A model generated the notes under the pieces. It was not told the DNA's origin and did no database searches. It was given only the letters and a program-made list of their open reading frames with translations. Made by a program: the position numbers and the translations under genes. Shown piece after piece: positions 26,501 to 57,610 of a DNA stretch of 64,000 bases. The DNA is from an uncultured archaeon (GTDB lineage Archaea; Nanobdellota; Nanobdellia; Pacearchaeales; GW2011-AR1), in assembly GCA_937143345.1 (NCBI GenBank), contig CAKZRD010000019.1:9116-73115 (forward strand), given 5' to 3'. The number at the start of each line of letters is the position of its first letter. Position 1 is the first letter of the stretch.

Positions 26501-26725
26501 AATATCTACCAAATCTGCTGATTCATAAAAATCAAAAAGCCCTGTTTGTTGATTATAAAATGCTAAATAAACCTTATCTCCAATAATTACATCACCATGA
26601 TAACTTAACATCGATTCTTTTTCATTCGTACTCCCAATTCTAATAAACCAAACCATCGCAACAACAGACAAAACCAACATTAAAACAGAACTTACAGAAA
26701 AAATCTTCGCTATTTTGGTTTTCAT
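23567..26725 (-). CDS. Giant polytopic Cys-rich surface protein with an embedded Hint (intein-like) domain
   Basis: 1052 aa with an N-terminal TM and additional hydrophobic segments. The Hint domain begins CLSSSISLADL and ends VLVHN|S. The C-terminal part is clearly paralogous to the C-terminal half of the 1360 aa protein (shared ...PCSEYRCKSLG...TPWKEVLTEGY... and repeated YYI[KR]C.D..GN modules). Confidence 0.6.
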   Translation of the reverse strand: MKTKIAKIFSVSSVLMLVLSVVAMVWFIRIGSTNEKESMLSYHGDVIIGDKVYLAFYNQQTGLFDFYESADLVDINRKAFSYESLSIDGSSKIPRTERLKDNCLSPKTQISLPYLSDGTYLTDEMLEELNLNLERERLGEMINKKGLGFMQIGMLVLGVVSFAYLIGGMWMVNATEYTIQEANFLDLLSDDLYRQAVSQGINRISIGSDKKIIALYSLGDDGNPNKVFSLVEGNLVQDTSYLKDILGGKTQEVKSPGTCLSSSISLADLSTKPISSIKPGEEVLSYDFETGKLTKEIVRDVIVSWKSEYLIVNKILEITPNHEVLLNGKWQPIGNAVVGDYLQGINSEKVFIESIEKVVLDEPIDVYDLDLGGKWFFAEGVLVHNSGPSGAPTAVSSVGGREVEPTLPPGDHPPRRIPGLGWNITQNQSFFWPVYHLAEGLLWGKVVSEFAGFVAQMAGTDEGQVETIKKAIFFGVTSFNTMRGIMTAKWFGSANEEKSLAQLAAKNKFFSFGEKLGAGFYEKFVPIAIGVGVAWYHYVKNYEKTEKFEERVEFKCLPWQAPHGGEDCELCNHDQLPCSEYRCKSLGQTCAFISQGEKGGICVDNSTREVSPPVITPWKEVLTEGYTYTDVRTSPPGPGFKIIRTEGLNACIKAFSPIQFGVTTNEPAQCKIDLEKKNSFEEMLSFMGGDNTYRKNFTEILHVPRAKDLKNSSLTLEMGKEMTLYLMCRDAKGNLNTVPYSVRFCVDDEPDNTPPQIKAVSVESGSCVTADQNHSLVEFYTDEPAECKWDFNDRTFEQMTYNMSCTQHVFEINSLLLYTCRANLTGVKRDGTDYYIKCKDNPGMPEKERNTMANSFNYKVRGSNHLKIKSISPNNITIYGGISPMPVNLTVETLFGCDNNKATCFYSFTGEQKSFVPFFDTNKADGVSKQRLDLFSGVHKYYIKCIDGGGNLAEAEAQFELEIDTFSPVIARAYHEDDYLKIVTFRRSDCVYSTESCDYLFEEGTLMPYSNSPVHVTAWDNEKTYYIKCRDEFRNEPIGCSLIVRPRKNFLF

Positions 26726-26901
26726 TTCTTCACCTCTTTAATTATTTGTTTTAATAAAGGAACTTTTTTAATTAACAACCGTGATTTATGAAAATTCGCC
26801 ATCTGATAATAAAATAAATCCTTATTCATATTAAACCTTAGAGCTTGTTTTTTTATTTTTTAATAGTAGAATAATTATTTCGAATGTTATGTTCTTTCTA
26901 G

Positions 26902-29211
26902 TCATCTTTTCTCCTCTACAATAAATTTAATTCCTGTTCCATAATCTCCGAGTGAAAGCCCTTTTTTTGAACTCCCGCCAGAAACAATTCGTTCTGGAAG
27001 ATCTTTTCCAGAAATTTTTTCCCATAGTTTTTGAGAGAAAGATTTTTCTTCTTTTATTTTTTCGTATTTAATTTCTTGAGGAAAACTTAATTTTTCAACT
27101 TTGACCTCTTCCCCATCCCTAGCAATGATTAAATCACCTTTTTTTAATTCCTCTATTTGTTTTAAAGAATATTTTTCTTCGTTTTTTAGCAGAACAAAAC
27201 TTCCTTTATTTATTTCTATTTTATCATTGATTAAAATTTTGTTTTTATTTTCCTTTATAACGAAAGCTGTTCCTCTTTTAGCGTGGCCTTGGTTTATTCC
27301 ACCTAATAAACTAAATGAAGAATTTTTATATTTCCAAGAATATCCATCGTCGGTATATTTGTCATTTATATTTACATTTGCCCCGCAATCTCCGATAGAT
27401 GTACAAATCGCATTTACTTTTTTAGCCCAATCTGCTTTAGGTATAAGCGAATATTCTTTTGAATTTCCAGAGGGTGCTTTTCCGCCTTCCCATTCTAAAC
27501 ACTCGCTTTCAATCTCTATTCCGCTTTCATTAATCATCTTGAAATTATACTCTTTATCTCCAAAAGGTCCAGCTAAACTTTCGTATTTTTCAGTTCTTAA
27601 TATTGTCACCTTACAAACAGCACTTGCTATCTCGCAATTCCCTTGTCCAAGCCAAAATTTATTACCTGGGGGGATTAAAGGAACACAAATTCCTCCCTCG
27701 TCTTCCTCGCTTTTATTGAATTTTGTAACTTTGTTTAAAATATCATAATCAAATTCCCAAATTCCTTTTCCGCTTGAAACAAAAGGTGCTAAAGCATTTG
27801 TTGTTATAACTTTTCCTGCCGACATGGAACCGAAAGCACTGGATGCTTGTTGTGCTAAACCTATTCCTTGCATTGCGTTATCAAAACCTGATTGTTTGCT
27901 TGTTGGATTTTGAAATTGCGAAAAAGAATTTGAAAAAGAAGATTGCTGTTTATTCCAATTTAATCCCTCTACATCATCAATCCAAATACAATCTCTTACA
28001 TCTATATTTTCACAATCTCTCTTTCTCCATTGCTGAACACAATCTTGCCATCTATTTACTCTACAGGCAGCAGTTGAAAATTCTCCAGAAGAAGTTTGGA
28101 TTCCTGAATGTATGCAAATTTGGTTTCTAAAATCAGCACAAGGGTCACTAACGACTTCCCCGTCTATACAAATTTGTCTAAAATGCCTTGAACCAGCTTT
28201 TTCATAGCCCTTTCCTGGCTCTATATCATAAACACACCAGCTCTCACCATTTATTCTTGTTTTTCCACTCATGTCTTTACAGGTTGTTCTTTTACAAATA
28301 AATTCTCCTTCTTTCCCTAGATTTGTTTTCTTCCCATCTTTGCTTGAACAAATACTTCCTAAAAGATAATCACAATTTCCGCAAGAAGTACTTCCGTCAT
28401 TACGAGGACAAATAGTATCTGGGTCTGCAACTCTACCTTTATTCCAGGACTTATCTTTGTTTGAAGAATAAACATTCTCCCTGTTCCCGCAAGAGTCAAA
28501 CCAATAAACTTTTCCTTTGTAGCAACCAACATAATTTTGTCTGGCACATTCTGTATTTAATTCTTCAGCAGAACAAAGAACATTTTTATAAAATTTTTTT
28601 CCTGTTTCTTGCTCTAAAATTGATTTGTTTACATTTAAAGCGATAACTCCATCTCTTGCTCCGCAATCTTTTCTCGTCGTAAATTTACACTCATTAACTC
28701 CTGTTCCTGTATAGGTAACACAAGCCCCCATATCTTGCCCGTTGGCTAAAAAAATACATTCTGATTCGTCAGTTACAGATGTCTTAAACTCCATCGTTAT
28801 TCCAAAGTATGTTGAAAGTTTTTTACATCTTGCTAAAGTAACTAAAGCAGCTTGGTCTGAAATTAAACAACAACCTAGACGACAAGTTGGAAGTTCTGAA
28901 GCAGATTTCTCACTCCAAGTTCCGTTTCTTTCTTGACAGATTTTTTGTGGAACATTTTCCATACAAATTCCTTCCTTTGTGTCATAACAAGTTCCCGTTT
29001 TACAGAAAGAGGTCTGCGCACAAGAAGAAGGAGCTATTCTGAAAGAAGAATCACATTCATTTTCTTGCGCGTTTAAACAAAATCCTCCACTTTTTGTTTT
29101 CTCGCAACAAAAGGAAGGAACAGAAATTATTGCAGAAGAAAAACTAATAAAAAAAAATAAAAATAATAAAAATATTGTTTTATTCATGGATATTCTCCTG
29201 CTGCTGGCCAA
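26902..29211 (-). CDS. Secreted Cys-rich protein
   Basis: 769 aa with a signal peptide. Paralogous to the N-terminal half of the 1360 aa protein: shared CCxxTKxGxxC, GCC motifs, CGNCDY..GSICS, GESWCVYD, GSRHF. Confidence 0.6.
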   Translation of the reverse strand: MASSRRISMNKTIFLLFLFFFISFSSAIISVPSFCCEKTKSGGFCLNAQENECDSSFRIAPSSCAQTSFCKTGTCYDTKEGICMENVPQKICQERNGTWSEKSASELPTCRLGCCLISDQAALVTLARCKKLSTYFGITMEFKTSVTDESECIFLANGQDMGACVTYTGTGVNECKFTTRKDCGARDGVIALNVNKSILEQETGKKFYKNVLCSAEELNTECARQNYVGCYKGKVYWFDSCGNRENVYSSNKDKSWNKGRVADPDTICPRNDGSTSCGNCDYLLGSICSSKDGKKTNLGKEGEFICKRTTCKDMSGKTRINGESWCVYDIEPGKGYEKAGSRHFRQICIDGEVVSDPCADFRNQICIHSGIQTSSGEFSTAACRVNRWQDCVQQWRKRDCENIDVRDCIWIDDVEGLNWNKQQSSFSNSFSQFQNPTSKQSGFDNAMQGIGLAQQASSAFGSMSAGKVITTNALAPFVSSGKGIWEFDYDILNKVTKFNKSEEDEGGICVPLIPPGNKFWLGQGNCEIASAVCKVTILRTEKYESLAGPFGDKEYNFKMINESGIEIESECLEWEGGKAPSGNSKEYSLIPKADWAKKVNAICTSIGDCGANVNINDKYTDDGYSWKYKNSSFSLLGGINQGHAKRGTAFVIKENKNKILINDKIEINKGSFVLLKNEEKYSLKQIEELKKGDLIIARDGEEVKVEKLSFPQEIKYEKIKEEKSFSQKLWEKISGKDLPERIVSGGSSKKGLSLGDYGTGIKFIVEEKR

Positions 29212-29951
29212 GGATAGCTCCTCACAGCGAAGTTAAATTTAATTTTCTCATTTTTTTCTATGACTGAATAAACCTTAACTTCATTATCTGTTCTTGTCTT
29301 TAAAATTTTTATGTTTGGATAAAAAAACATTTGTTGCATTTGTTCGCTATCTCCGTAATATGTTTCAAATTGAATTAAAGACGTTGCTATCATCAAAACT
29401 TCGTAAAGATTTGTTTTGAAATTATAACTTAAGTTTTTAATTGAGGAAGAAGATTCTCCGTGTGAAATTTTTGCTGGAGCGTTTATCTTAATTTTGATTT
29501 CTTTAGGTTCTATTGATACAGAATAAGAAATTTCTCCTTCTTCAACATCTATTCCTCTTCTTTTTAACTCACTTATAGATTTTTTATAACATTTTTCAAA
29601 ATCTTCTTTAATTAATTCTTTCAGTGATTCTTCAAACCTATCTTTTAAAAAAGGTTCTTGATTAACGCAAGGTGTTAGATATTCGTTTGTGTAACATAAG
29701 AAAGTATAATTTTCTCCTTTATAAAAATGAACAAATTTTGGCTCTAAAAATCCTGCTGTTTGAGCAAGAGATTTTATTTTTTTAGAAAGGCTATCATCTA
29801 GACAGCTCTCAAAACTTCTACTAAAACCAAGCGGTAAAGTTAAACCTCTTATAAATTCTGGTTTAAAATAATAAAAAAGAAAAAAAATGCTGAAAATGAA
29901 GATTAACCCAAGTATTATAAATAAAGTAACTTGTCCCCTTTTATTCTCCAT
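29184..29951 (-). CDS. Small membrane-anchored protein with class III (pilin-like) signal peptide; paralog of 34065..34829
   Basis: MENKRG-QVTLFIILGLIFIF has Gln at +1 after K-R-G. 255 aa. Similar length, N-terminal motif and position to its paralog. Confidence 0.45.
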   Translation of the reverse strand: MENKRGQVTLFIILGLIFIFSIFFLFYYFKPEFIRGLTLPLGFSRSFESCLDDSLSKKIKSLAQTAGFLEPKFVHFYKGENYTFLCYTNEYLTPCVNQEPFLKDRFEESLKELIKEDFEKCYKKSISELKRRGIDVEEGEISYSVSIEPKEIKIKINAPAKISHGESSSSIKNLSYNFKTNLYEVLMIATSLIQFETYYGDSEQMQQMFFYPNIKILKTRTDNEVKVYSVIEKNEKIKFNFAVRSYPWPAAGEYP

Positions 29952-29985
29952 TTTTTTAAAAAGAAAATTAGGTTTATAAATTCTT

Positions 29986-32900
29986 TTATAAATTAATAGG
30001 TTTAATTATTGCTGAGCATTGATTTAAAATGTTTAGTTTTTTGTCTCTGCATCTTATATAATAAGTTTCATAAGGATATGCTGTAAAGTTATGTGATCTT
30101 GATAAGTATTTTATTTCACTCGGAAGTTCATAGTTACAAAGAGTTGTTTTGTTTGTATTATAAAAGCATTCTGCTTCCTCGTCTGTTTCTAAAGAAAGTT
30201 TTCCATCTTTGTATAAAGCTCTTTGTATTAAAGGAGGAGTTTCATCAAAGAATACTGAAAAGTTAAAAGTTTCTTCTGCAATATTTCTTGCTTCGTCTTC
30301 ACATTTTACATTGATTGAATAATTACCTTGTGGAAACGTGAGTAATTGATTATGTTCTGTTTTACCTGTTTCAAAGAAATTTATGAACGAAGAAGAAAAT
30401 CCGGGGACATTGTAAGAGCAAAATGCGTTTCCTATGCATCCGAAAGTTCTAACAGAAAGAGTGAAATTTTTTTCCTCTATTAAATTTTTTCTATTTAACA
30501 AAGAAATATTTAATCCATCTTTACAAACATTTAAAACATATTCTTTGCTTACAAAATTAATATTTCTTTTATAATATTCTGTTTCTTCTTTTAAATTTGG
30601 TTGGTCATTACATCTAAAATAAAAAGTGTTTTTCCCTTCTGTTAAATTATCAATCTTTGTAAAACAAGTCCATTCTCCGAGGAAAACGCTTTCTTGTGAA
30701 GTTAAACAAGTCATATTGTTAGACATATCATAGAAACCTTCATTTCCGCTAACTACATCATACTCTTTAACAAAACGGCATTCTGCTGGCTCGTTAAGAT
30801 AAAGAATTACGGATGTTGAATTTGTTCCTTTTTTCAAATAAATCCCATTTGGAGGATTAAATCTTCTTAATTCAGCAGGAGTTAGGTCTGGACCTTGTTT
30901 AACTTTAACTTGAACGACAAATTCTGCTTCATTAACTTGACCTGCAAAATTTAAACATCTTATATAATATTCATTTTCTTCTCCGATTGTTAAACCAAGA
31001 GTATTTTTAGATGCGTTTTTGTCTTTTAAAAAACCGGAAAGTGTTATTTTGTGAGTTAATCCATCAGATTTTCCTGTTTCTGGATTAATATCTGAAATCA
31101 TCTCGAATTTCATTTCATCATAGCTTTTTGTGTGTTCATAATCAATCCTACAAGTTGCTGGTTTGTCAGTTTTTATTCCGAAAGTTAAATCTCCCCAAGC
31201 TTCTATTCCTTCGCCGTTTTTTCCAGCAATTCTAAATCCACTATCTCTTACATTTATATAAGAGTAACCTTCTGTTAAAACTTCTTTCCAAGGAGTTATT
31301 TTTGCTTTCCATATCTCGCTTATAGAATAACAATATCCTGGTTCTCCTTTCTCAATAAAGTAATGACAATTGCTTCCCAGTGATTTACATCTGTATTCAG
31401 AGCAAGGTCGGACGTCGTCGTTGCAAATATCGCAGTTTCCATTTTTTGGTGGTTGCCATGCTTCGCATGAGAAAGACATTATGTAATATTCGTATTCATC
31501 AAAACTATCGTCAAAACAATTTTTATACACTGAAGTAGAGATAGCAGCAACGACGGCTACAGCACAGACAGGATTTATAAAACCAGTCGCCCCACAAATG
31601 GTGCCAGTCAACTTAAGAATAACAACGGTTGCTGAGACAAAAACAGTAGACATTGCGGCCATCAAACCCTCGATAAACTTCCTTTCTAGTCCAGGACTCC
31701 AATTTTGATTCTTAGCAATAAGCTTTCCAAGCTGATATCCAACATAAGACCCAATTATTGCTGTGGCTGCCAAGGTTAAACCAGCTTTTAAATTCATCAG
31801 CCAGTTTGGATTTGTAACAGTCGTACTAACTTTTCTAGTTAAACCTAAATATTTCTGAAGCCCATCTAAAAAGGTAGATCCTGTCTCAAAAAAAGGAACA
31901 GTGCTAGTAGTTGTGACGGAAGTTGTTGTTAGGGCCTTCCAACCACCCATCGCCAATCCTGCCATAGTTAATGGCCCAGCAAAATTAACAATTTCCTGCA
32001 AAGAACTAGAAGAGCTTCCAACACTCACGCCCTTAGAGAGTTCATTTAAATCTATAGTTGTCTTATTTATATCACCAGCAGTCCAGGCACTATCTGCAAT
32101 ATCCGCAGACAAACCGGAGGAGATAGATTTGAGATCATTTAATTTTTTAAAAGAAGCAATGGGTTTTTTAAAAGAAGCAATGTAATCTCCTGGAAGAGTA
32201 TAATTACTAATTGAAATATTCCTATTCTCCCCCTTCCTGTCTATCTTGATTCTTTGAACAGAGAAGCCCGGAAAATCTTCATTGACTTCTCCAATTATAT
32301 TTGAAGAAACACCACAACTTCCCAACGCCCTACATCGCTCATTCATTGCAGACATGAGATTAGGTAGATCTTTTGTCTTTATATTAACATTTGCTCCATC
32401 GATATTGCACTCCCAATTTGCTTCATCTTCCCATGGATCGCAGTCTACATCTTCTGGATTTATTAGTTCTGAGATCCCATAAGAATAAGCACAGAGTGTA
32501 GTACTTATCAATCCCTTCAATTGAAGATTGGTCTCATCGACCATCTGGCATTTTCTTTTTACACTAGATATGCAAGTAAAACTCCCCAAACTACAAATTG
32601 CATTTGTTTCTTCATTGCTTCCACCATAATTTGCTGTGGAGAATTGTTTTTGTTTTTGAGAAGGATTATAGGAATCTGAACCTCTTCCTACAATTTTAGT
32701 ATTGGTATTCCAAAATTGAAAACCTGGAGTAAATCTTGGAACACAATGAGCTAAAAGTTTATTTTGGTCTTTTCCTAAATCATCTATTGCACCTTGTTCT
32801 GCATTTGTTTTTTCTGGATCAAAACCTGCAAGAAATTTACCGTCACTTCTTTTTAATTTATCTTCACCATAAAATTCGTTAAACATAATGCATTGTGGGT

Positions 32901-34068
32901 TTTCTTCGCATTTCTTTTCAACTTCAGAATAAGACTCAGCATCATTTGCATTGAGACAACTTCTCCAATCGTTTATTAAGCATTTTGCCTCAGTGTAACC
33001 TGAATCAGTATTTTGAACACAGATTTCTTGCATGAAATCAGCACACCCCTCTATAGAAATTTGACCCTCGAAACAACGAGCAATAAAATGTCTAGAACCT
33101 ACCGGAGCAATTCCTTCTAACGGATTAAAGTCATAAACACACCAGCTTTCCCCGTGCTTTTTGTTGTTGCAATGCAAGCTTTTGCAAACATAATCTCCTA
33201 ACGAAGGTTTTTGCGTTTTTCCTTTCTCGTATTTTGCACAAATACTTCCTCTAACATAATCGCAATTTCCACACGACGGACTTTCAGGAGAACAAGATTC
33301 TTCTGGAGGAATTGGTTTTTCCCAATAGGTTTGATTGTTTGCTTTGGAAGAATCATAAATGTTTGCTACATTACCACAGGAATCAAGAAAATAAACTTGA
33401 TCTCTATCTTCGACACATGTTGTTTTATTAGTTGGTTTACATATTGTGTTTAATTCTTTTGATGTACATAAATAACCTGGTTTAAAATCTCCTGTTTTAC
33501 AATTTTTTTTTGAAGTATAAACGCAGTTTTTTTCTCCTGAAAAATCCCCTGAATCTGAAAGACACGCTCCTAACTCTTCTAAACCGATATATTTTTCACA
33601 ACTTTCCCCACTCGAAAAAGGAATAAATTTTTTTTCAAAATTATATTTATTCGAAAGAAGAGTACACTCTCTCGAATTAACTAAAGAAACTTGGTTTCCA
33701 AGGATACAACAACCTAATTGACATTGTGGAATGTTGCATGAAATATCATCGCTCCAATTCCCTCCATTTTCTAAACATTTTTGTTTTGGCGACCTTAAAG
33801 AGCAAGTTCCTGTAGAAGAAGAATAACAACAACCAAGTTTGCATTCACCTACTGAAGAGCATTTTGTGGCAAATAGGTTTTCCTTACACAAATCTGCTTG
33901 AAAAAAAGGAATATCTTGGCAAATGGCTCCTTCTTTTGTTTCTCTACAGCAGCCTTTGAATGAGTCGGTTTGTGCGGAAACTAATTCTCTTTCTGAAATT
34001 AAATAGGCAAAACTAAATATTGCTAAAATCAATATTAAAATTTCTAAAAAAGCAATTTTTTTTTTCAT
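29986..34068 (-). CDS. Giant (1360 aa) Cys-rich surface/membrane protein, fused version of the 769 aa + 1052 aa pair
   Basis: Signal peptide. N-terminal Cys-rich region paralogous to the 769 aa protein. Central multi-TM hydrophobic region. C-terminal repeated beta-rich modules ending YYIRC.D..N, paralogous to the 1052 aa protein. No Hint domain. Confidence 0.6.
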   Translation of the reverse strand: MKKKIAFLEILILILAIFSFAYLISERELVSAQTDSFKGCCRETKEGAICQDIPFFQADLCKENLFATKCSSVGECKLGCCYSSSTGTCSLRSPKQKCLENGGNWSDDISCNIPQCQLGCCILGNQVSLVNSRECTLLSNKYNFEKKFIPFSSGESCEKYIGLEELGACLSDSGDFSGEKNCVYTSKKNCKTGDFKPGYLCTSKELNTICKPTNKTTCVEDRDQVYFLDSCGNVANIYDSSKANNQTYWEKPIPPEESCSPESPSCGNCDYVRGSICAKYEKGKTQKPSLGDYVCKSLHCNNKKHGESWCVYDFNPLEGIAPVGSRHFIARCFEGQISIEGCADFMQEICVQNTDSGYTEAKCLINDWRSCLNANDAESYSEVEKKCEENPQCIMFNEFYGEDKLKRSDGKFLAGFDPEKTNAEQGAIDDLGKDQNKLLAHCVPRFTPGFQFWNTNTKIVGRGSDSYNPSQKQKQFSTANYGGSNEETNAICSLGSFTCISSVKRKCQMVDETNLQLKGLISTTLCAYSYGISELINPEDVDCDPWEDEANWECNIDGANVNIKTKDLPNLMSAMNERCRALGSCGVSSNIIGEVNEDFPGFSVQRIKIDRKGENRNISISNYTLPGDYIASFKKPIASFKKLNDLKSISSGLSADIADSAWTAGDINKTTIDLNELSKGVSVGSSSSSLQEIVNFAGPLTMAGLAMGGWKALTTTSVTTTSTVPFFETGSTFLDGLQKYLGLTRKVSTTVTNPNWLMNLKAGLTLAATAIIGSYVGYQLGKLIAKNQNWSPGLERKFIEGLMAAMSTVFVSATVVILKLTGTICGATGFINPVCAVAVVAAISTSVYKNCFDDSFDEYEYYIMSFSCEAWQPPKNGNCDICNDDVRPCSEYRCKSLGSNCHYFIEKGEPGYCYSISEIWKAKITPWKEVLTEGYSYINVRDSGFRIAGKNGEGIEAWGDLTFGIKTDKPATCRIDYEHTKSYDEMKFEMISDINPETGKSDGLTHKITLSGFLKDKNASKNTLGLTIGEENEYYIRCLNFAGQVNEAEFVVQVKVKQGPDLTPAELRRFNPPNGIYLKKGTNSTSVILYLNEPAECRFVKEYDVVSGNEGFYDMSNNMTCLTSQESVFLGEWTCFTKIDNLTEGKNTFYFRCNDQPNLKEETEYYKRNINFVSKEYVLNVCKDGLNISLLNRKNLIEEKNFTLSVRTFGCIGNAFCSYNVPGFSSSFINFFETGKTEHNQLLTFPQGNYSINVKCEDEARNIAEETFNFSVFFDETPPLIQRALYKDGKLSLETDEEAECFYNTNKTTLCNYELPSEIKYLSRSHNFTAYPYETYYIRCRDKKLNILNQCSAIIKPINL

Positions 34069-41860: not shown

Positions 41861-43054
41861 ATGAAAAAATATGTTATTTTTGCTTTAAAAAGTTTAAAAC
41901 AAAGAGGAATAAGGAGTTGGCTTACTTTAATTGGTATTATTATTGGTGTTTCGTTAGTTGTTTCTCTTTTTCTTCTTGGTGATGGGTTGGGGTTGGCGAT
42001 TTCCTCACAATTCGGAATTTCTTCTACTGAAATAATTTCAGTTACTGCTGGAGGATTAAATGCCTTTGGCCCCCCAGGAACACTTGTTTCAAATCCTTTA
42101 ACAGAAAAAGATTTAGAGGAAATTGAAAAAACTTCTGGAGTAAAAAAAGCTATAAAAAGGTATATAAGAAGTGCTGAATTAGAATATAGAGAAAAAAGGG
42201 ATAGGATTTTTTTAACAAATATTCCTGAAAAAGAAAATGATTTTTTGTATGAACTCCTCGACTTAAAAATAGAAAGAGGGAAATTTATTTCTGGAGATGA
42301 AAGTGGGAAGGCAATGATAGGTTATAATTTATTTAAAAATAAAAATCTTGATGTTGGAAACAAAATAAAAATAAATAATCAAAGTTTTGAGATTGCGGGT
42401 GTTTTAAAAAGAAAAGGAAGCTTTATATTAGACGGCATAATTTTTATTTCTGAAAAAGATTTAGAAAAAATCTCTGAAGACAGAAATATAAATGTTATAG
42501 CAATAAAACCATATTCTTCTGACGAAATTGATAAAGTAAAAGAAAATATAGAAAAAACACTAAGAAAGATAAGAAATGTAAAAGAAGGAAAAGAAGATTT
42601 TCAAGTATCCACTCCTAAAGCTACTTTGTCTAATATAAACAATATTTTATTTGGAGTTAAAATTTTTGTTGTAATAATCGCTTCAATCTCTATTATCGTT
42701 GGCGTTATAGGAATTACAAACACTATGACTACTTCTGTTTTAGAAAGAAGAAAAGATATCGGAATAATGAAGGCAGTTGGTGCAAAAAATTCTCAAATTT
42801 TTCTTTTGTTTTTTGTTGAATCCGGTCTCTTTAGTTTTTTCGGAGGATTGGTTGGAATAATTTTAGGAGTTGGGTTTGCACATATTGGAACAATCTCAAT
42901 CGGTAAATTTCTAAATGTAGAAATTCCACTAAAGATTGATTTTCTTTTCTTAATTTTTTCATTGATTGGAAGTTTTCTAATAGGTGCTTTTGCCGGCACA
43001 AATCCTGCGTTGAACGCTTCTAAATTAAAACCAATAGAAACCCTAAGAGAATAA
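41861..43054 (+). CDS. ABC transporter permease, MacB/FtsX-like
   Basis: N-terminal TM, large periplasmic-type domain, then a C-terminal 3-TM FtsX-like block (ITNTMTTSVLERRKDIGIMKAVGA). Confidence 0.75.
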   Translation: MKKYVIFALKSLKQRGIRSWLTLIGIIIGVSLVVSLFLLGDGLGLAISSQFGISSTEIISVTAGGLNAFGPPGTLVSNPLTEKDLEEIEKTSGVKKAIKRYIRSAELEYREKRDRIFLTNIPEKENDFLYELLDLKIERGKFISGDESGKAMIGYNLFKNKNLDVGNKIKINNQSFEIAGVLKRKGSFILDGIIFISEKDLEKISEDRNINVIAIKPYSSDEIDKVKENIEKTLRKIRNVKEGKEDFQVSTPKATLSNINNILFGVKIFVVIIASISIIVGVIGITNTMTTSVLERRKDIGIMKAVGAKNSQIFLLFFVESGLFSFFGGLVGIILGVGFAHIGTISIGKFLNVEIPLKIDFLFLIFSLIGSFLIGAFAGTNPALNASKLKPIETLRE

Positions 43055-43062
43055 TAAAAAAC

Positions 43063-44343
43063 TAAGGGATTAATCTATCTCTGTCCCTTGAAAACATTGT
43101 AGCTTCCTTAATATTATCCAAACCACATATTATTTGAGTAATTCTCTCTAAGCCTATTGCCCAACCAGAATGAGGTGGAGCACCAAATCTAAAACTATCA
43201 ATATAATTTTCAAAGTTCTTAGGATTCATCACTTTAGCCTTTTAATCTTGCGATAAGCAATTCTGGCAAATGAATTCTCTGCTAACCTGAAGAAATCTCT
43301 ACTACCACGCAATATAAACTATCAAAACCCTCGCTTACTTTTGCTTTAGGATCTTCTCCTTTTGGCATTATGTAAAAAGGTTTAAGACTTGACGGCCATG
43401 AATGAACAAAAACTAAATCCCCTGGATACATCTCACATAATTTTTTTCTTGTTCTGGAGTAAAATCTTCTCCAACTTTTCCCCTAACTTTTTTATTCCTT
43501 CTTCATAAGTCAAATAAATTCCTTTTGGGACTTTTAATTTAACTCCAAGAATTTCAAGTTCTTTTTTACAATTCTCAAGTATTTTAGTAACAATAAATTT
43601 TATGCATCCTTCTTGCTCTTGCATAATTTGCATTTGGTTTGTAAAAGCAGCTTCTACATCAGGCATTCTTATCTCATTAATGTGCCTTGTTGTATTATGT
43701 TTTTCTGCTCTCCATGCAGGTCCAATGTAAATGTCTTTTCCATAGAACAAGCAAGCATCTGCTTGTAAAGTTGAGGAGATTGAGCCATAAAAGCTTTTTT
43801 CTCAAAATACTTTACTTCAAATAATTCTATTCCACCCTCGCTTGCAGCAGAAATCATGTAAGGCTGTTGAATTTCAATATAACCTTTTTCATAAAAATAT
43901 TTCCTGAAACTATTTGCTATCTCTGTCTGTATTTTAAAAATAGCCTGAACTCTTTCCCTATGAAAATCTAAAAACTTATAATCCAATCTCTTAGGCATTT
44001 CTGTTTTTGAAAAATCAGAAACATCGATAGGAAGTTTTTCCTCAGCCGAATTTACAAGCTCAATTTTTTCCAAGCCAATTTCTTTTCCTCCGGGAGCCTG
44101 CTTAGAATCTTTAATTATTCCTTCAATATAAACAACAATTTCCCTATTAAGTTTTCCAATTTTCTCAAACTCTGCTTCAGGAGTTTCTCCCATAAAAACA
44201 ACACATTGCATTTTTCCTATTAAATCTCTTAAAACCAAAAACCTAACTTTTCCTAAGGCCCTGGTATCATTCACCCAGACAGCTAGTTTTACCTTCTCTC
44301 CTGCTTTTTTCTTAAATGCTTCTGAAACTTTTATTCTTTCCAT
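43063..44343 (-). pseudogene. aspS: Aspartyl-tRNA synthetase (class IIb), disrupted by at least four frame changes and an in-frame TAG
   Basis: The N-terminal OB anticodon-binding domain and motif 1 are in one frame (..FRKYFYEKGYIEIQQPYMISAASEGGIELF..AQSPQLYKQML). Motif 2 (GPAWRAEKHNTTRHINE) and the following segments (GEDFTPEQEK, then KLCEMYPGDLVFVHSWP..KPFY) lie in shifted frames. ..EISSG is followed by an in-frame TAG before QRIH. Motif 3 ([18 protein letters not shown]...[10 protein letters not shown]) needs a further shift. Most shifts map to G or A homopolymers. Confidence 0.55.
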
Positions 44344-44987
44344 GTTTTATACTTCTTTTTAACTTGTAAGCTAAGGATTTCCATTTAAAAATTGAATATG
44401 CTCCAAGAAGACCATTCCGCGAACAGTAAGATCGAAGTCCAGGTACCTATAGCCATCATCATCAAACCCATATAAGCTCCCGCACCCAAACCCTTCTTTT
44501 CCTTAACAATTCTCGCGGCTTCTGTTTCAACCTCACTCAAGCCTATTTTTTCAACACCCAATGCTTGCTCGGGTTTCGCGCCTTTAACAACTTGCTCAAG
44601 AACATGTTTACATCACTCTCTACAATCTTTTTATCGCTAATAGCTTTCAAAACTTCTTCAAAAACATCCATATCAAGTTTTTCTTCTACCTTTTCAAGCT
44701 AAATTAGTATCTCTAAATTTTTTCGTAAATAATTTATTTTTCTTTCTCTACCCCCTTGTTTCGTGGTCCTATCGACTTAACTTCTCTCTCGCTACTTCAT
44801 GAATTTTCATAGAAAAAATCCAATCAGGAAATCCAATCAAGACATTATTTCTCAGCACACCCCGACATCTACAAAGCAATTTTCTTGTATCAAGCTGTTG
44901 ACGAATTTTCAAACCAACCCTTTTTTCTACTTTCTTAAATTTAACTATGATTATACTTAAGAAAGAAATTAATAAAACAGCGATGCT

Positions 44988-46268
44988 TTAATCCATAGAA
45001 CTTTTACAATGAAGGCCGGGTAAACTACAAACTTCATTAATAATTTCTCTGGTCTGATTCTCATCCAGCGGTACATGTAACACTGATGAATGGGTTTGAT
45101 ATGGTCGGATTTCTCCAGAATTAGTTTTTCCATTATCTTTATGCAGATTAAAATCCAAACATCTGTTTATTTGTTGATCTTTGGCATATTTGATAAAACT
45201 AAGTCTTCTTTGTCTGAATCTTTCTCTATTAGCTATATCTAAAGCTTCTCCACGATAAAAAAAATCAGCTAACGCTGCATCTATTCCTGCATAAACTAAT
45301 CCCATAAAAACCCCAAAATGCTTTCTGTTTGGTCCTTCCGGATCTATAAACCAACTTCCTGCACCTAAAAAAAACGGCATATCTCTCCTATCTAAAACTC
45401 TTCTTTGAGATTCTCTCATAATTGAAGGGTAAACTTTTGCCGATACCCCGAGTAAAGAAGAGTTAGTATCTTCAGAAACAATTTTAGGAATAGGATATAA
45501 AAACGTATACAAATTAGATATTGTCTGACGCTCTCGAAGATATTGTGAATATTTTACATTATTATCTAACTTTCTCCCATTTTCATCGATTATTAAAAAA
45601 GCATGCGGAACAAGAGACTCTGACAAACCTGATTTTTCTATATAAGAGTACATCGCTAAGGAACTAAAAGCTTTAAGAATTTCATTGCAAGCTCTTCCAG
45701 AGATAACAGTATCAATTATAGAAAAAGAATCTATTCGGGGAAAAGCTTCATACATTTCAGCTATCCGACCCCTATCTTCGATTCTCCTTAAAATAATGTC
45801 TGTAAAGGATCTAAAAAAGGGATCGTAACTTCTGCCTCGAGAATCTTTAAATAAAGAAGCAGTAACTCCAGCCCAATACTGCCTTGTTTTTTTTACAAAT
45901 TCATCATTATTAAGGGTGGGATCAAACTTCTTAACATTTAAATCCGCAGTAAACGGAATCAGTAATACTCTAGTCTCTGCATCATGCAAATTTGTATTGG
46001 GATAAATTGTTTCAGGCAACAATGGTGTTAATATTGGTTGAACTGCAACATTCTCAGAAAATCTAGCTGCCTCCGAACTAATTCCTCTGAGTTTGTCCAT
46101 AGCATAAAGTGTACCTAAAAAAAATGGCAGCGAGCCCCTACTTGGAATAACTAAAGTGTTAAAATATCCTTTCTTGTATCTAGTCTCTGCTAAGTCTATA
46201 GCAAGATTCACGCAAGCTTGTGAATATGCAAACATATTCTGCTCGCTAAAAACTTCATCTAAAGACAT
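44988..46268 (-). CDS. Hypothetical protein with N-terminal phosphoribosyltransferase (PRTase)-like domain; function unknown
   Basis: 426 aa. PRPP-binding-loop-like FSIIDTVISGRACNEIL (phi4-D-T-phi-phi-S-G) and upstream LVIPSRGSLPFFLGTLYAM. Arg-rich composition unlike neighbouring genes. Sits in a GC-elevated island. Confidence 0.4.
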   Translation of the reverse strand: MSLDEVFSEQNMFAYSQACVNLAIDLAETRYKKGYFNTLVIPSRGSLPFFLGTLYAMDKLRGISSEAARFSENVAVQPILTPLLPETIYPNTNLHDAETRVLLIPFTADLNVKKFDPTLNNDEFVKKTRQYWAGVTASLFKDSRGRSYDPFFRSFTDIILRRIEDRGRIAEMYEAFPRIDSFSIIDTVISGRACNEILKAFSSLAMYSYIEKSGLSESLVPHAFLIIDENGRKLDNNVKYSQYLRERQTISNLYTFLYPIPKIVSEDTNSSLLGVSAKVYPSIMRESQRRVLDRRDMPFFLGAGSWFIDPEGPNRKHFGVFMGLVYAGIDAALADFFYRGEALDIANRERFRQRRLSFIKYAKDQQINRCLDFNLHKDNGKTNSGEIRPYQTHSSVLHVPLDENQTREIINEVCSLPGLHCKSSMD

Positions 46269-46734
46269 AAGGCGTAACTCCTCTTTCAGTTCCTACATTT
46301 AAATCTAAAATGGATTCAACCGTGGATCTGAATTTTCCAACTTCAAAACATTCCTTCCTGATAACACAGACAACATTACCATAGTTTCTCCAGTTAGCAG
46401 GGGGATTTTGAGCAAGAAATAAACATTTTGCATCTGGATAAAGAGTCCTTATTACCTCTAGTATCTGCCTCCAAGAAGTATCGTCTGGTGAATTGTTTAC
46501 TCTAAGAGGTAAATGTCTGTCACAAATATAAAGATGAGCAAAAGGATACTCTCTTTCGCGAAAAGAAGTCATATCTCCTATGGGTACCATTAGTTCTACA
46601 CCTAAAGACAAAGCTAAAGCAGATTCTACTTTTTTCTGCCAATACACACTATCTTCTATATGTAATACTTTTTTCATTTTAACTCCAAAAAACAAAAGAA
46701 TGAATTTACCTGCTTCGTGATATCTTTTATCCAA
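46255..46734 (-). CDS. Hypothetical protein, possibly a divergent CheY-like receiver fold
   Basis: The probable true start is MKKVLHIEDSVYWQ. LYICDRHLP and CLFLAQNP resemble REC strands 3/4. Weak. 14-nt overlap with the downstream PRTase-like gene. Confidence 0.3.
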   Translation of the reverse strand: MDKRYHEAGKFILLFFGVKMKKVLHIEDSVYWQKKVESALALSLGVELMVPIGDMTSFREREYPFAHLYICDRHLPLRVNNSPDDTSWRQILEVIRTLYPDAKCLFLAQNPPANWRNYGNVVCVIRKECFEVGKFRSTVESILDLNVGTERGVTPYVFR

Positions 46735-46916
46735 GATTTATCTAAAAGACTTGGAGCAACTATTGCAACAGAATCAGCACTCTCATTAACAGTGGTTAAA
46801 CAAACTTGAAATAGTGCTCTACCAAAATCCCAAGAAGAGGTAAGATTTAGACTATTTGCTTCAAATCTCTCTTCTAATTCAGACCTAATAAATATTCTAT
46901 CAAACATTATATCCAT
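46674..46916 (-). CDS. Small hypothetical protein, first listed ORF of the island operon
   Basis: 80 aa, no motif. An ATG-less ORF fragment lies directly upstream on the same strand. Confidence 0.2.
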   Translation of the reverse strand: MDIMFDRIFIRSELEERFEANSLNLTSSWDFGRALFQVCLTTVNESADSVAIVAPSLLDKSWIKDITKQVNSFFCFLELK

Positions 46917-47279
46917 AAAAAGAACTGCCTTTTAAATCTTTCTATTTTGTTGTTTCTTAATAGAAGTGACAAAAGACAATAGTTATAAACTCTTTTTCCT
47001 CTTAAAATTTATAGGGGATAATTATTACAGAAAAATAGGGAGAGTATTGAGCCAGTGTTCCAACGCTTATAACTTTTATCTGAAGTAAATATCTTTCTGT
47101 ATGAACACTATCAACCCTCAAAAGATTAGCAAATCCATAATTACCAATATTAGAATGAATGCAAGGTTCGACAGACAAATTTCCTTTCCGAAGAATTTCT
47201 TTAAAAATGCAATATTTGAGATTATAAACTTGCTCAAAAACTGAATGACTTATCCTCTTTTAAACTTAATTATAATAAT

Positions 47280-48542
47280 ATGCCGGAAACCAACAACTAT
47301 TTAAGCTTTTTTCTTATTGAGAATATGAAGAAAATGATAAAAAAAGAGAATATAAAATACGTTTTAAGGAATCTAAAAAGGAGAAAAACAAGAACTTTTT
47401 TAACTTCTCTTTCTATTCTAATAGGTGTTGCGACTATATTTATTTTTATTAGTTTTGGGGCAGGACTTTACGAATATATAAATGAATTAACCTCTGGTTC
47501 TTCTGTAAATAAGATTATTATTCAACCAAAAGGTTTTGGTACTGTTGGTTTATTTGATAAAAAGATTCAATTAACAGAAAAAGATGTGAAGATTACGGAA
47601 AATATTCCTGGAGTAAAAAGGGTTAGCCCATTATACTTCGGTGTTGCAGAAGTATCTCAAGAAAAAGAAAGGATTTATTCGTTTATACTCGGTTATGATG
47701 CTGAAAAACCCTTAATCTTTGAAGTATCGAACATCGGTTTAGAAAAGGGAAGATTTCTTCAAAAAGGAGAAAAAAACAAAGTTCTTTTGGGATACAACTA
47801 TATGGTAGAAAATAAAATTTTTCCGAAAAAATACGATATAAATCAAAAAATAAAAATAAATAATGAAGAAATGCAAATTGTTGGCTTTATTCGAGAAATA
47901 GGAAACCCTCAAGACGATGCACAAATATATATAACAAAGGAATACTTTGAAGAAGTTTATCCAGAAACAACTAGTTATAGTTGGATTATAGCAGAAGGAG
48001 ATATAAAAGAAATTGATTCTATAGTAGAAAAAATTGAAAATAGATTAAGAAATGAAAAAAACCAAAAAAAAGGAGAAGAAACTTTTTTTGTGCAAACCTT
48101 CGACGATTTGATAAAAACATATCTTTCTGTTTTAAATATAATTATTGGTTTTGTAATATTAATTGCTTTAGTTTCTGTTATTGTTTCTGCAATAAACACT
48201 TCTAATACGATGATAACTTCTGTTTTAGAAAGATATAAAGAAATAGGGGTAATGAAAGCAACTGGTGCAAAAAACACTGAAATTTTATCTATTTTTGTTT
48301 TTGAATCATCTTTAATAGGGTTTATCGCAGGAATTTGCGGGGTTTTGCTTGGTGCTTTTTTAAGTTTCTTAGGAGAAAAAATTCTAACCAACCTGGGTTG
48401 GAGCTTTCTAAAGCCGTTTTTTTCTCTTTGGCTCTTTGTTGGTTGTATTTTATTTGCGACTTTAACTGGGGCCATATCTGGAGCGTTACCTGCGATTCGC
48501 GCCTCGAGAATTAATGTAGTTAATGCTCTGAAATATGAATAA
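47280..48542 (+). CDS. ABC transporter permease, MacB/FtsX-like; paralog of 41861..43054
   Basis: Same architecture. Conserved block NTMITSVLERYKEIGVMKATGAKN. Confidence 0.75.
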   Translation: MPETNNYLSFFLIENMKKMIKKENIKYVLRNLKRRKTRTFLTSLSILIGVATIFIFISFGAGLYEYINELTSGSSVNKIIIQPKGFGTVGLFDKKIQLTEKDVKITENIPGVKRVSPLYFGVAEVSQEKERIYSFILGYDAEKPLIFEVSNIGLEKGRFLQKGEKNKVLLGYNYMVENKIFPKKYDINQKIKINNEEMQIVGFIREIGNPQDDAQIYITKEYFEEVYPETTSYSWIIAEGDIKEIDSIVEKIENRLRNEKNQKKGEETFFVQTFDDLIKTYLSVLNIIIGFVILIALVSVIVSAINTSNTMITSVLERYKEIGVMKATGAKNTEILSIFVFESSLIGFIAGICGVLLGAFLSFLGEKILTNLGWSFLKPFFSLWLFVGCILFATLTGAISGALPAIRASRINVVNALKYE

Positions 48543-56146: not shown

Positions 56147-57610
56147 ATGGGAAGAGAAGAAGAAGTTGTAAAAATAAGAATTGAAAAAATAGAAAGAATG
56201 AAAAAAGAAGGCTTTTTGCCTTATGATTATCGTTTTGATACTACGAGTAATATTATTCAAATAAGAGAAAAATTTTCTGAATTGAAAGAAGAAGAAACAA
56301 AAGAAAAAGTTTCTATCTCTGGAAGATTGATGAATATTCGTTCTCTTGGAAAACTTTCTTTTCTAAAAATACAAGATTACTCTTCGACAATTCAGGGAGT
56401 AATACAAGAAGGAAAGACTCCTAAAGAAAAAATAGAATATTTTAAAAAATTTGTAGATAGCGGCGATATAATTGGAATTATGGGAAAAGTTTTTAGGACA
56501 AAAACAGGTGAGCTTTCTGTTCTCATAGAAGACATAAGAATTCTCTCTAAATGCATTTTGCCGATTCCGGAAGAATTTTATGGTTTAAAAGACAAAGAAG
56601 AAAGATATAGAAAAAGATATCTTGATTTATTAATAAACGAAAAATCTCGAAGAATTTTCCAAATAAGAGCAAAAGTTATGGAAGCAATAAGAGAATTTAT
56701 GAAAGTTAAAGGTTTTATTGAAGTTGAAACTCCTTTATTGCAACCAATTTATGGCGGTGCTGCAGCAAAACCTTTCAAAACTCATTGTGATGCTTTTGAT
56801 AGTAATGTTTTTCTTTCCATTGCGCCAGAACTTTATTTAAAAAAAGCAATGGTTGGGGGATTGGGGAGTGTTTATGAAATAACGAAAAAGTTTAGAAACG
56901 AAGGAGTAGACAAAAACCACAATCCAGAACATATGACAATAGAATGGTATCAAGAAAATGCCGACTATAATGATGGAATGAAATTGTTCAGAGAGTTTTT
57001 ACTTTTTATATCTGAAAAAGTATTCGGTAAAACGACTATTGAATACAAGGGACATAAAATTGATTTAACTAAATGGGAAACGCTTTCTCTTGAAGACGCA
57101 ATAAAAAAATATCTTAATATTGACATCTCAAAAATAAAAACCGATGAAGAAGCAAAAAAAATTGCAAAAGAAAATGGTTTAGATGAAAGCAAGATAACAA
57201 AAATAAATCTGCCAGATGAATTAATGAAAATTTTTAGAGAAAAATTAATACAGCCCACTTTTTTAATAGATTACCCGATAGAACTTGCTCCTCTTGCAAA
57301 ACCTTCCAAGAAAGATCCTAAAAAAGCAGAAATTTTTCAGCCATTTATTGGTGGTTTAGAGGTTGGGAGAGCTTATTCTGAATTGAGTGATCCTTTCATT
57401 CAAGAAGCTTCCTTTGATGAACAAGAAAAAGAAAGAGAGAAAGGAAACGAAGAGGCAATGCCGACAGACAGAGATTTTATAACAGCTCTAAAATACGGTC
57501 TTCCTCCGGCTTGCGGGGTTGGAGTAGGAATAGAAAGATTAATGATGTTATTTACAGATTCTGAAACAATAAGGGATGTAATAATGTTTCCTTTTATGAA
57601 ACCTGAATAA
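56147..57610 (+). CDS. lysS: Lysyl-tRNA synthetase, class II
   Basis: N-terminal OB fold. Motif 2 FRNEGVDKNHNPEHMTIEWY. Motif 3 region GVGIERLMM. 487 aa. Confidence 0.88.
   Translation: MGREEEVVKIRIEKIERMKKEGFLPYDYRFDTTSNIIQIREKFSELKEEETKEKVSISGRLMNIRSLGKLSFLKIQDYSSTIQGVIQEGKTPKEKIEYFKKFVDSGDIIGIMGKVFRTKTGELSVLIEDIRILSKCILPIPEEFYGLKDKEERYRKRYLDLLINEKSRRIFQIRAKVMEAIREFMKVKGFIEVETPLLQPIYGGAAAKPFKTHCDAFDSNVFLSIAPELYLKKAMVGGLGSVYEITKKFRNEGVDKNHNPEHMTIEWYQENADYNDGMKLFREFLLFISEKVFGKTTIEYKGHKIDLTKWETLSLEDAIKKYLNIDISKIKTDEEAKKIAKENGLDESKITKINLPDELMKIFREKLIQPTFLIDYPIELAPLAKPSKKDPKKAEIFQPFIGGLEVGRAYSELSDPFIQEASFDEQEKEREKGNEEAMPTDRDFITALKYGLPPACGVGVGIERLMMLFTDSETIRDVIMFPFMKPE

Follow-up and report, generated by a model that had tools for sequence, protein, structure and literature searches.

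In a 64,000-nucleotide stretch of the genome of an uncultured Pacearchaeales archaeon (assembly GCA_937143345.1, contig CAKZRD010000019.1; the whole stretch is called the window below), a 4.27-kb block at positions 43062-47327 was shown to have been inserted between two permease genes with a 17-nt duplication of the target junction. The block is one complete operon unit made up of a dyad-symmetric element that is probably the promoter, a gene for a 140-aa receiver-like protein (REC140), a gene for X, a protein of 426 aa whose family is unannotated and whose fold resembles, in divergent form, that of type I phosphoribosyltransferases (PRTases), and the translation genes gatE and aspS, of which the last two have decayed. 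We regard it as very likely that the block is the inserted relic of an aminoacyl-tRNA operon and not a defence island. The explanation as a whole, in which a gatE/aspS operon fragment was inserted, REC140 and X were kept and X has a tRNA-linked function, is held with moderate confidence as the best one. The window records how, in a genome of the DPANN archaea, part of an operon was inserted cleanly between two genes and left a scar.

Insertion of an operon unit between two MacB genes

The genes on either side of the block had been taken in the initial annotation, made from the sequence alone, for paralogous MacB-like permeases, and this assignment holds. According to Pfam, both the upstream gene (MacB1, 41861-43054, plus strand) and the downstream gene (MacB2, 47334-48542, plus strand) code for MacB_PCD + FtsX permeases, which are 33% identical to each other. 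In the 14 closest relatives recovered in a metagenome scan (comparison loci, labelled L throughout: L046-L052, L054, L056-L058, L060, L067 and L074), a MacB1 orthologue (41-52%) is directly followed by a MacB2 orthologue (41-57%) with overlapping stop and start codons; in the window the two are split by 4.27 kb lying on the opposite strand. The 17 nt at the MacB1 stop (AAGAGAATAATAAAAAA, 43045-43061, plus strand), which mark the left boundary of the insertion, are repeated at the MacB2 start (AAGAAAATGATAAAAAA, 47328-47344, plus strand) with 15 of 17 positions identical and a spacing of 4283, and both copies align to the single junction of the relatives. Since the MacB pair is contiguous in 14 relatives and the flanking repeat equals the ancestral junction, the block is an insertion. 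In the relatives, the MacB2 orthologues begin at the corresponding ATGATAAA, and their alignment places the true MacB2 start at the ATG at 47334, inside the right copy of the junction; the longest MacB2 reading frame, from 47280, carries an 18-codon extension that lies in the inserted block. One edge of the block is about 335 nt upstream of the promoter element and the other falls exactly at the aspS stop codon. Open reading frames (ORFs) for an integrase or transposase were not found in 43062-47327, nor were convincing terminal inverted repeats at the block edges. The extent first given to the unit (44344-47280) was too small, as the block covers all of 43062-47327 and includes both an aspS and a gatE pseudogene.

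A modest step in guanine-plus-cytosine (GC) content coincides with the block edges, and together with the strand switch at both edges it could be taken for an assembly chimera, the block being mis-joined from the contig of another organism. Such a mis-join is extremely improbable, as an identical X protein is found on four contigs (NCBI, JGI, ENA) on which the genes around X are mostly shared, the junction of the host's MacB genes is found in a copy at each edge, as fits biological integration, and the donor type belongs to the same archaeal group. The same locus is also present on a contig of GCA_036733025.1. A bacterial contaminant was ruled out, the close homologues being all from DPANN archaea.

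The window as a whole is AT-rich (29.3% GC), with archaeal housekeeping genes that include those for IleRS, MetRS, a class II LysRS, RtcB, PCNA, ribosomal proteins and a form III RuBisCO. It had been proposed that the region around X is of foreign origin, with 35-42% GC against 25-30% in its flanks, and this difference was exaggerated. The GC content of 44344-47280 is 33.6%, 300-nt windows there peak at 37%, and the value lies 1.6 standard deviations (sd) above the mean (windows of equal length have an sd of 2.7%, and 9.7% of them match or exceed this value). Stretches elsewhere in the window also reach 34-37%. The highest GC of the window (34-36%) is that of three very large ORFs of 1052, 761 and 1360 aa at 23570-34068 (minus strand), which hold no Pfam domain; GC elevation is thus not specific to the X region. 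The excess of Arg over Lys, which had also been pointed out, is real: with an R/(R+K) of 0.62, X ranks first among 54 window ORFs (mean 0.27, sd 0.11) and REC140, at 0.61, second, and in other genomes X orthologues tend to exceed their GatD and GatE neighbours in Arg richness. GC at third codon positions (GC3) is 0.227 for X and REC140 versus 0.195 +/- 0.032 for window genes, that is, within about 1 sd. Since GC3 is ordinary while the Arg content is extreme, the GC excess comes mostly from amino-acid content. An argument for foreignness from GC or codon usage was rejected, these deviations being too weak a sign alone. What stands of the proposal is that the block is an insertion; most likely it is an additional copy, which either came from another DPANN archaeon as a xenologue or arose by duplication.

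Downstream of X the block holds two relics, which keep the expected gene order and strand. The "intergenic" sequence 44385-44987 (minus strand) is a gatE pseudogene, recognized by BLASTP against the GatE of L002 (a GatE equivalog), by a GatE profile hmmsearch of the window, in which the pieces scored E 2e-11, 3e-10 and 3e-5, and by reading of the sequence. Its N-terminal piece (positions 4-53 of the hidden Markov model, HMM; 44772-44987) has no start codon and reads GLKIR in place of GLEIH, its C-terminal YqeY-like pieces (HMM 380-460; 44388-44698) lie in two frames, and about 325 codons (about 1 kb; roughly residues 54-379) have been deleted between the surviving pieces. A direct repeat that had been reported as flanking the island does exist (AATCCAATCA at 44817 and 44830); it is 10 nt long and lies inside the gatE remnant, where no role for it was found. 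The erosion of aspS (43062-44346, minus strand; archaeal non-discriminating type) was also seen correctly from the start. The pseudogene is of full length and broken into at least five frame pieces (at least four frame changes), with an in-frame TAG ("SSG*QRIH"); AspRS HMM pieces 1-204, 202-291, 297-353, 355-368 and 368-426 fall in different frames (E 1e-71 to 3e-19), and Pfam matches to tRNA-synt_2 and the anticodon domain are spread over three separate ORFs. The 64 kb hold no second AspRS, and LysRS (56147-57607) is the sole other class IIb synthetase; HMM searches found no trace of gatD or asnS within the window. Unlike the decayed gatE and aspS, X and REC140 keep all the residues that are invariant in their families. 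Decay of the redundant gatE and aspS of the inserted copy, with retention of REC140 and X by selection, would account for this pattern, and the survival of REC140-X while essential genes decayed is evidence of a selectable value of REC140-X itself.

Protein X, its receiver partner and the upstream element

X (44988-46268, minus strand) matched no Pfam (E <= 1), NCBIfam, PADLOC or PHROG model, and neither phmmer nor a family profile retrieved a PRTase from the PDB sequences, where the only matches were spurious ones to designed proteins. There are 115 homologues at 25-57% identity, and all named sources are Pace-, Woese- or Nanoarchaeotes. A profile search of 1.84 billion representatives returned 223 X-family clusters only, nearly all of 370-450 aa; exhaustive as it was, this search did not merge the family into canonical PRTases, and the family is closed. 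In the predicted structure of X the core alpha/beta fold of type I PRTases is present, with hypoxanthine-guanine PRTases (HGPRTs) as the best structural matches, and Foldseek against the PDB was not significant. About 250 aa larger than salvage PRTases, X is predicted to have a helical insertion of about 60 aa at the position of the flexible loop and a C-terminal helical hairpin of about 120 aa plus a small alpha/beta unit. The term PRTase-like, used for X in the initial annotation, is therefore apt at the level of fold and motif, and X is not a PRTase family member by any sequence model.

The invariant motifs of X are PSRGxxP (42-48), PFTAD (105-109), R129, IDTVISGRA (185-193), SED (265-267) and G274; residue by residue, P42-S43-R44-G45, P48, P105, D109, R129, D186-T187, S190-G191, A193, E266-D267 and G274 are invariant among 60 aligned members. 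The previously noticed motif FSIIDTVISGRA, which resembles the loop that binds phosphoribosyl pyrophosphate (PRPP), is present, and IDTVISGRA is invariant in 60 family members. Compared with the 13-residue PRPP-binding motif (a hydrophobic strand, two acidic residues and xx[ST]Gx[ST]), FSIIDTVISGRA has the hydrophobic strand, invariant D186, S190, G191 and A193 and HGPRT-like spacing; it lacks the second of the two acidic residues and has Ala in place of the last Thr. As judged from the spacing of the motifs and from the predicted secondary structure, PSRGxxP would correspond to the pyrophosphate (PPi) loop and IDTVISGRA to the PRPP (5-phosphate) loop, placed after core strands one and three. 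The invariant D109, R129 and E266-D267 suggest catalysis. The copy of X in the window departs from its family at one of 59 highly conserved columns, and the family median is also one.

The ORF preceding X had been described as a degenerate receiver of 159 aa. Receiver-like it is, and its length is 140 aa from the ATG at 46677 (46255-46677, minus strand), not 159 aa from a TTG, because every one of the 11 homologues begins MKK(V/I)IHIED. The predicted fold of REC140 is a (beta-alpha)5 CheY-like one. Its phospho-site residues, positioned from predicted strands and not from a residue-level structural alignment, are E8-D9 after beta1, an invariant D53 after beta3, position 89 after beta4 (Ser in relatives, Ala in the window copy) and K108 after beta5. 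The residues DRHxP, D66 and W69 are invariants specific to the family, and the window copy deviates at one of 25 conserved columns. REC140 has no match to the Pfam Response_reg model (PF00072) at E <= 1, and its family profile reached a REC protein in the PDB only at E 1.3; a word-indexed homologue search with REC140 alone returned itself only, and the relatives were found with a five-sequence profile. All the homologues belong to one sub-clade (L004, L011, L016, L020, L036-L040), in which each lies just before X and overlaps or abuts it. The three minus-strand ORFs of the island, which had been proposed to form an operon, do overlap or abut: 14 nt are shared at 46255-46268, and a stop and a start codon overlap as ATGA at 46674-46677. 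Being translationally coupled to X and having kept the phospho-acceptor Asp, REC140 probably switches X on or off.

Upstream of REC140, eight loci share a non-coding element of about 65-70 nt (46916-46992 in the window, minus strand), which was found by alignment and confirmed with nhmmer (48 bits, E 3.5e-13 in the window; 56-68 bits in relatives). In other loci it ends 10-30 nt from the REC140 ATG. It is about 80% identical between loci (the window, L004, L011, L016, L036-L040) although the proteins are only about 40% identical, and it is dyad-symmetric with TATA-like boxes at both ends, TTTATAA ... GAAAGATTTAAAAGG, also given as TTTATAAA ... GAAAGGTTTAAAAAGG. Where REC140 is missing, weaker matches are found just upstream of X. 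The reading as a riboswitch or as a leader RNA was rejected, as the consensus fold is weak (-2.0 kcal/mol) with an unfavourable covariation term and no Rfam family matched. Judged by its boxes and symmetry, the element is probably the archaeal promoter (B recognition element/TATA) and operator of the REC140-X operon. An "ATG-less ORF fragment" that had been marked at 46980-47250 has no homologue, and part of it overlaps this conserved promoter element.

In the window only, 239 nt holding an 80-aa ORF (ORF80, 46674-46916, minus strand) are inserted between the element and REC140. No homologue of ORF80 was found in about 40 loci or elsewhere in the window, and neither Pfam nor PHROG gave a match. 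Its similarity to Upx (PADLOC/NCBIfam) is insignificant, with E 0.021/0.089 and about 10 bits against a cut-off of 1900 bits, over about 36 of 1271 profile positions. Its GC is 0.31, and its Arg and Lys are equal in number. ORF80 is a lineage-specific insert of doubtful coding status. The possibility that ORF80 or the region upstream holds a remnant of GatD was discarded after negative HMM and tblastn searches, and that of a mobile or repeated element since there is no second copy.

The conservation of the element raises the question of whether REC140 and X together act as a split response regulator, or as a regulator of the PyrR/PurR kind, in which X would sense PRPP or a nucleotide, bind the dyad operator or the mRNA and control the gatE-aspS operon. 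PRTase-fold regulators do exist, as in PyrR and the PurR of B. subtilis, a receiver domain is a classic regulator input, both X and REC140 are unusually Arg-rich, and the dyad element of about 65 nt, about 80% identical where the proteins are about 40% identical, lies directly upstream of REC140. We nonetheless find this role improbable. A DNA- or RNA-binding domain was not detected in X, most X loci lack REC140 and have only weak matches to the element, and the many invariant acidic residues suggest catalysis over mere sensing. Moreover, a dedicated regulator would be expected to decay with its targets, yet this one is conserved.

Gene neighbourhood and possible role of X

In other genomes, gatE directly follows X at about 19 distinct archaeal loci, often without a spacer, and at about 17 of those gatD is found upstream of X, with the genes for AspRS and then AsnRS downstream; the neighbours pass the NCBIfam equivalog cut-offs for GatD, GatE, archaeal AspRS and AsnRS. 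A REC140-X-GatE-AspRS unit is present in L036, L037 and L039, and in an archaeal outlier (L024) X is beside gatD. Bacterial relatives of X (23-29% identity), from phyla of the Candidate Phyla Radiation (CPR) and from metagenome-assembled genomes (MAGs) labelled "Gammaproteobacteria", are beside cysS in six loci (L028-L033), in both divergent and tandem arrangement. This cysS neighbourhood in bacteria is an independent second link to aminoacylation. Several of the "Gammaproteobacteria" MAGs show CPR-like neighbourhoods (RecR, YbaB, DnaX), and their label may be wrong. In L101 (12714-15856, minus strand), which represents a lineage farther off, gatD and gatE are adjacent and overlapping with no X between them. 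Because this pair adjoins without X, X is apparently a later addition to gatD-gatE, and it seems to have been added in the Woese-, Pace- and Nanoarchaeota clade.

In archaea the amidotransferase that acts on Glu-tRNA(Gln) is GatDE, which assembles into a transamidosome with the non-discriminating glutamyl-tRNA synthetase (PMC2943598). The gene for X, flanked by gatD on one side and gatE on the other and with aspS and asnS further downstream, is placed where a partner in this pathway would be expected. It was therefore considered that X acts on or with the machinery for Gln-, Asn- and Asp-tRNA (Cys-tRNA in bacteria), serving the GatDE/AspRS pathway as an auxiliary enzyme or factor. X would bind a 5-phosphoribosyl group, be it that of PRPP, of a nucleotide or of the nucleotide end of a tRNA, by means of its PPi-loop-like PSRGxxP and PRPP-loop-like IDTVISGRA. 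A mechanism of this kind, a tRNA-linked and receiver-controlled binding of phosphoribosyl groups by X, is put forward tentatively. That X is a new component of aminoacyl-tRNA formation in archaea and CPR bacteria, either a PRPP- or nucleotide-dependent enzyme or a tRNA-end-binding factor that works with GatDE/AspRS (CysRS in bacteria), with a dedicated receiver switch in one sub-clade, is a possibility to which we give somewhat less credence still. Under that reading X might, for example, be the third subunit of a transamidosome, an enzyme that modifies or repairs tRNA, or one that serves the quality control of aminoacyl-tRNA. Of the four roles weighed for X, the one in tRNA charging is the best supported, because X sits between gatD and gatE across deep lineages and a bacterial lineage has it beside another aminoacyl-tRNA synthetase gene.

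Several points weigh against a role in tRNA charging. The function of X is read here from its gene neighbourhood and fold. Its most divergent members, P0105 and P0108, have no Gat or aminoacyl-tRNA synthetase neighbours, and X is found with both short and full-length forms of GatE. In the window X is intact though the gatE and aspS in cis are dead. Among the genes annotated around the locus there is no histidine kinase, the window not having been scanned exhaustively for one. Since X survives without a functional gatE in cis, it is not strictly dependent on its cis neighbours, and an independent metabolic role is equally compatible with that survival.

Such a metabolic role would be that of a divergent nucleotide-salvage PRTase or another PRPP-using enzyme, for which the gat and synthetase neighbours reflect housekeeping clustering in tiny genomes and REC140 tunes salvage. 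DPANN and CPR organisms rely on salvage, the best structural matches of X are HGPRTs, its PPi- and PRPP-loop-like motifs are invariant, it survives beside a dead gatE and a dead aspS, and divergent members occur in unrelated contexts, two of them near HAD-type hydrolases. We judge salvage unlikely all the same, though worth keeping in view, as at about 17 loci X separates the subunit genes of one enzyme (gatD and gatE), with almost no gap before gatE, and an unrelated bacterial lineage has it beside another synthetase gene. Furthermore, the family is small (223 clusters), it carries about 250 extra residues with a long helical insertion and a C-terminal helical hairpin, and only a single acidic residue precedes its PRPP loop.

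The initial annotation had favoured a horizontally acquired and undescribed defence or conflict system with X as a PRTase-like effector and REC140 as a receiver-like sensor. The block is truly an insertion, PRTase-fold effectors are part of some retrons and other defence systems, and one distant but genuine member of the X family is prophage cargo. This member (L045 2693-4021, IMGVR_UViG_2562617045_000002; hhalign probability 99.9%) lies between an integrase/SRAP pair and lysis genes, on a side where a phage lysozyme and a tail-fibre-like gene are encoded, and L045 is the sole viral match among 2.9 million contigs. A defence function is, even so, very unlikely, and all the tests made of it spoke against it. 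PADLOC found nothing for X or REC140 and its ORF80-Upx match is insignificant; searches of 50,697 phage genomes, of 72,556 plasmids and of PHROGs came back empty. The conserved neighbours in about 25 loci are translation genes and do not form a defence-island context, GC3 is like that of other window genes, and synteny is stable over deep DPANN lineages, unlike the variable contexts of defence islands.

To return to tRNA charging, GatDE is usually treated as a two-subunit enzyme across archaea, and the translation systems of ultra-small symbiont radiations are known to be unusual. The presence of a conserved enzyme-like gene between gatD and gatE in Woese-, Pace- and Nanoarchaeota, and next to cysS in bacteria of the CPR type, suggests that tRNA charging involves a step or partner not yet described. 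If X were such a component, the window would be a natural experiment in which a module was transplanted and kept while its cis partners decayed. The role of X in tRNA charging is the main question and is experimentally tractable; the structure of X is predicted with confidence, its invariant residues are clear and its receiver partner is small, so that X can be tested directly.

Comparison with known systems and surrounding features

Compared with type I PRTases (HGPRT, APRT, OPRT; PF00156; including PyrR and PurR), X is more than twice the size, has no match at the sequence level and is not significant by Foldseek; one acidic residue stands before its PRPP loop, and D109, R129 and E266-D267 have no assigned counterpart. 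To the PRPP-dependent ribofuranosyltransferases (CriT-type domains; PDB 7shg and 8a0c, Bcs3) X is only 6-7% identical. These enzymes, which occur as fusions with other transferase and phosphatase domains, have capsular or cell-wall polysaccharide as their substrate, and X has no such context. REC140 differs from the CheY-like single-domain response regulators (PF00072) in being too divergent for the Pfam model, in having invariants of its own (DRHxP, D66, W69) and in the Ala89 of the window copy, and from stand-alone receivers in being translationally coupled to a PRTase-fold protein. The archaeal group in which REC140 is found generally has few two-component systems.

We know of no GatDE with a third subunit. 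Lineage-specific extra subunits of amidotransferases have precedent in GatC and in the GatF of yeast mitochondria. Unlike a GatDE subunit, X is enzyme-sized with a predicted pocket like a nucleotide site, and it persists here without a functional gatE in cis. HisZ-HisG, in which a synthetase paralogue partners a PRTase, may serve as a conceptual precedent. HisG is, unlike X, a type IV PRTase of histidine biosynthesis, and with no likeness in sequence or context it is an analogy only. A literature search returned no paper linking GatDE with a PRTase-like protein or treating gatD/gatE in DPANN archaea. As far as the searches of Pfam, NCBIfam and the literature show, there is no earlier description of the X family, of its architecture (a PRTase-like core extended by large helical parts), of its pairing with a receiver or of its place inside the gatD-gatE cluster, both folds being known.

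The GatE encoded next to X is mostly a short form of about 480 aa (L002, L005-L013, L015, L017, L019, L021, L039, L043), which is without the GAD/AspRS-like insertion domain of about 140 aa and passes the equivalog cut-off in two stretches; a full-length GatE of 621 aa is kept in L022, L036 and L037. The idea that X substitutes for the GAD-like insertion of the short GatE was ruled out, as X coexists with the 621-aa form in these three loci. Between gatD and X, a conserved small membrane protein of about 135-150 aa is encoded on the opposite strand in L005, L006, L009, L012, L013 and L015, with the motif FGQKAAD..TKWAGSW...QAPIILMSQNRQ. The conserved sequence of the gatD-X gap had been a candidate for an RNA gene and was set aside, as it is this small membrane protein and no tRNA or Rfam match lies there.

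A tRNA gene recurs about 0.1-1.3 kb upstream of the gatD ORF, and in L010 and L017 it is inside the extended frame of that ORF. ARAGORN identified tRNA-Arg(TCG) at L002 4486-4559, L005 4925-4996, L010 1548-1619 and L017 3376-3448. Rfam tRNA matches of 125-133 nt that ARAGORN missed are present at L009 42-170, L012 4872-4996 and L015 2579-2711, which suggests intron-containing tRNAs. A GatB-type gene was found a few kb upstream of gatD-X-gatE at L007 2317-3738, L013 2960-4387, L036 1060-2430 and L038 1092-2462 (all minus strand). The L007 gene is a GatB equivalog, and those in L013, L036 and L038 were called from 27% BLASTP identity or from Pfam matches to GatB_N and GatB_Yqey. On these assignments, the genes for GatCAB and GatDE appear to be clustered together in several of these archaea.

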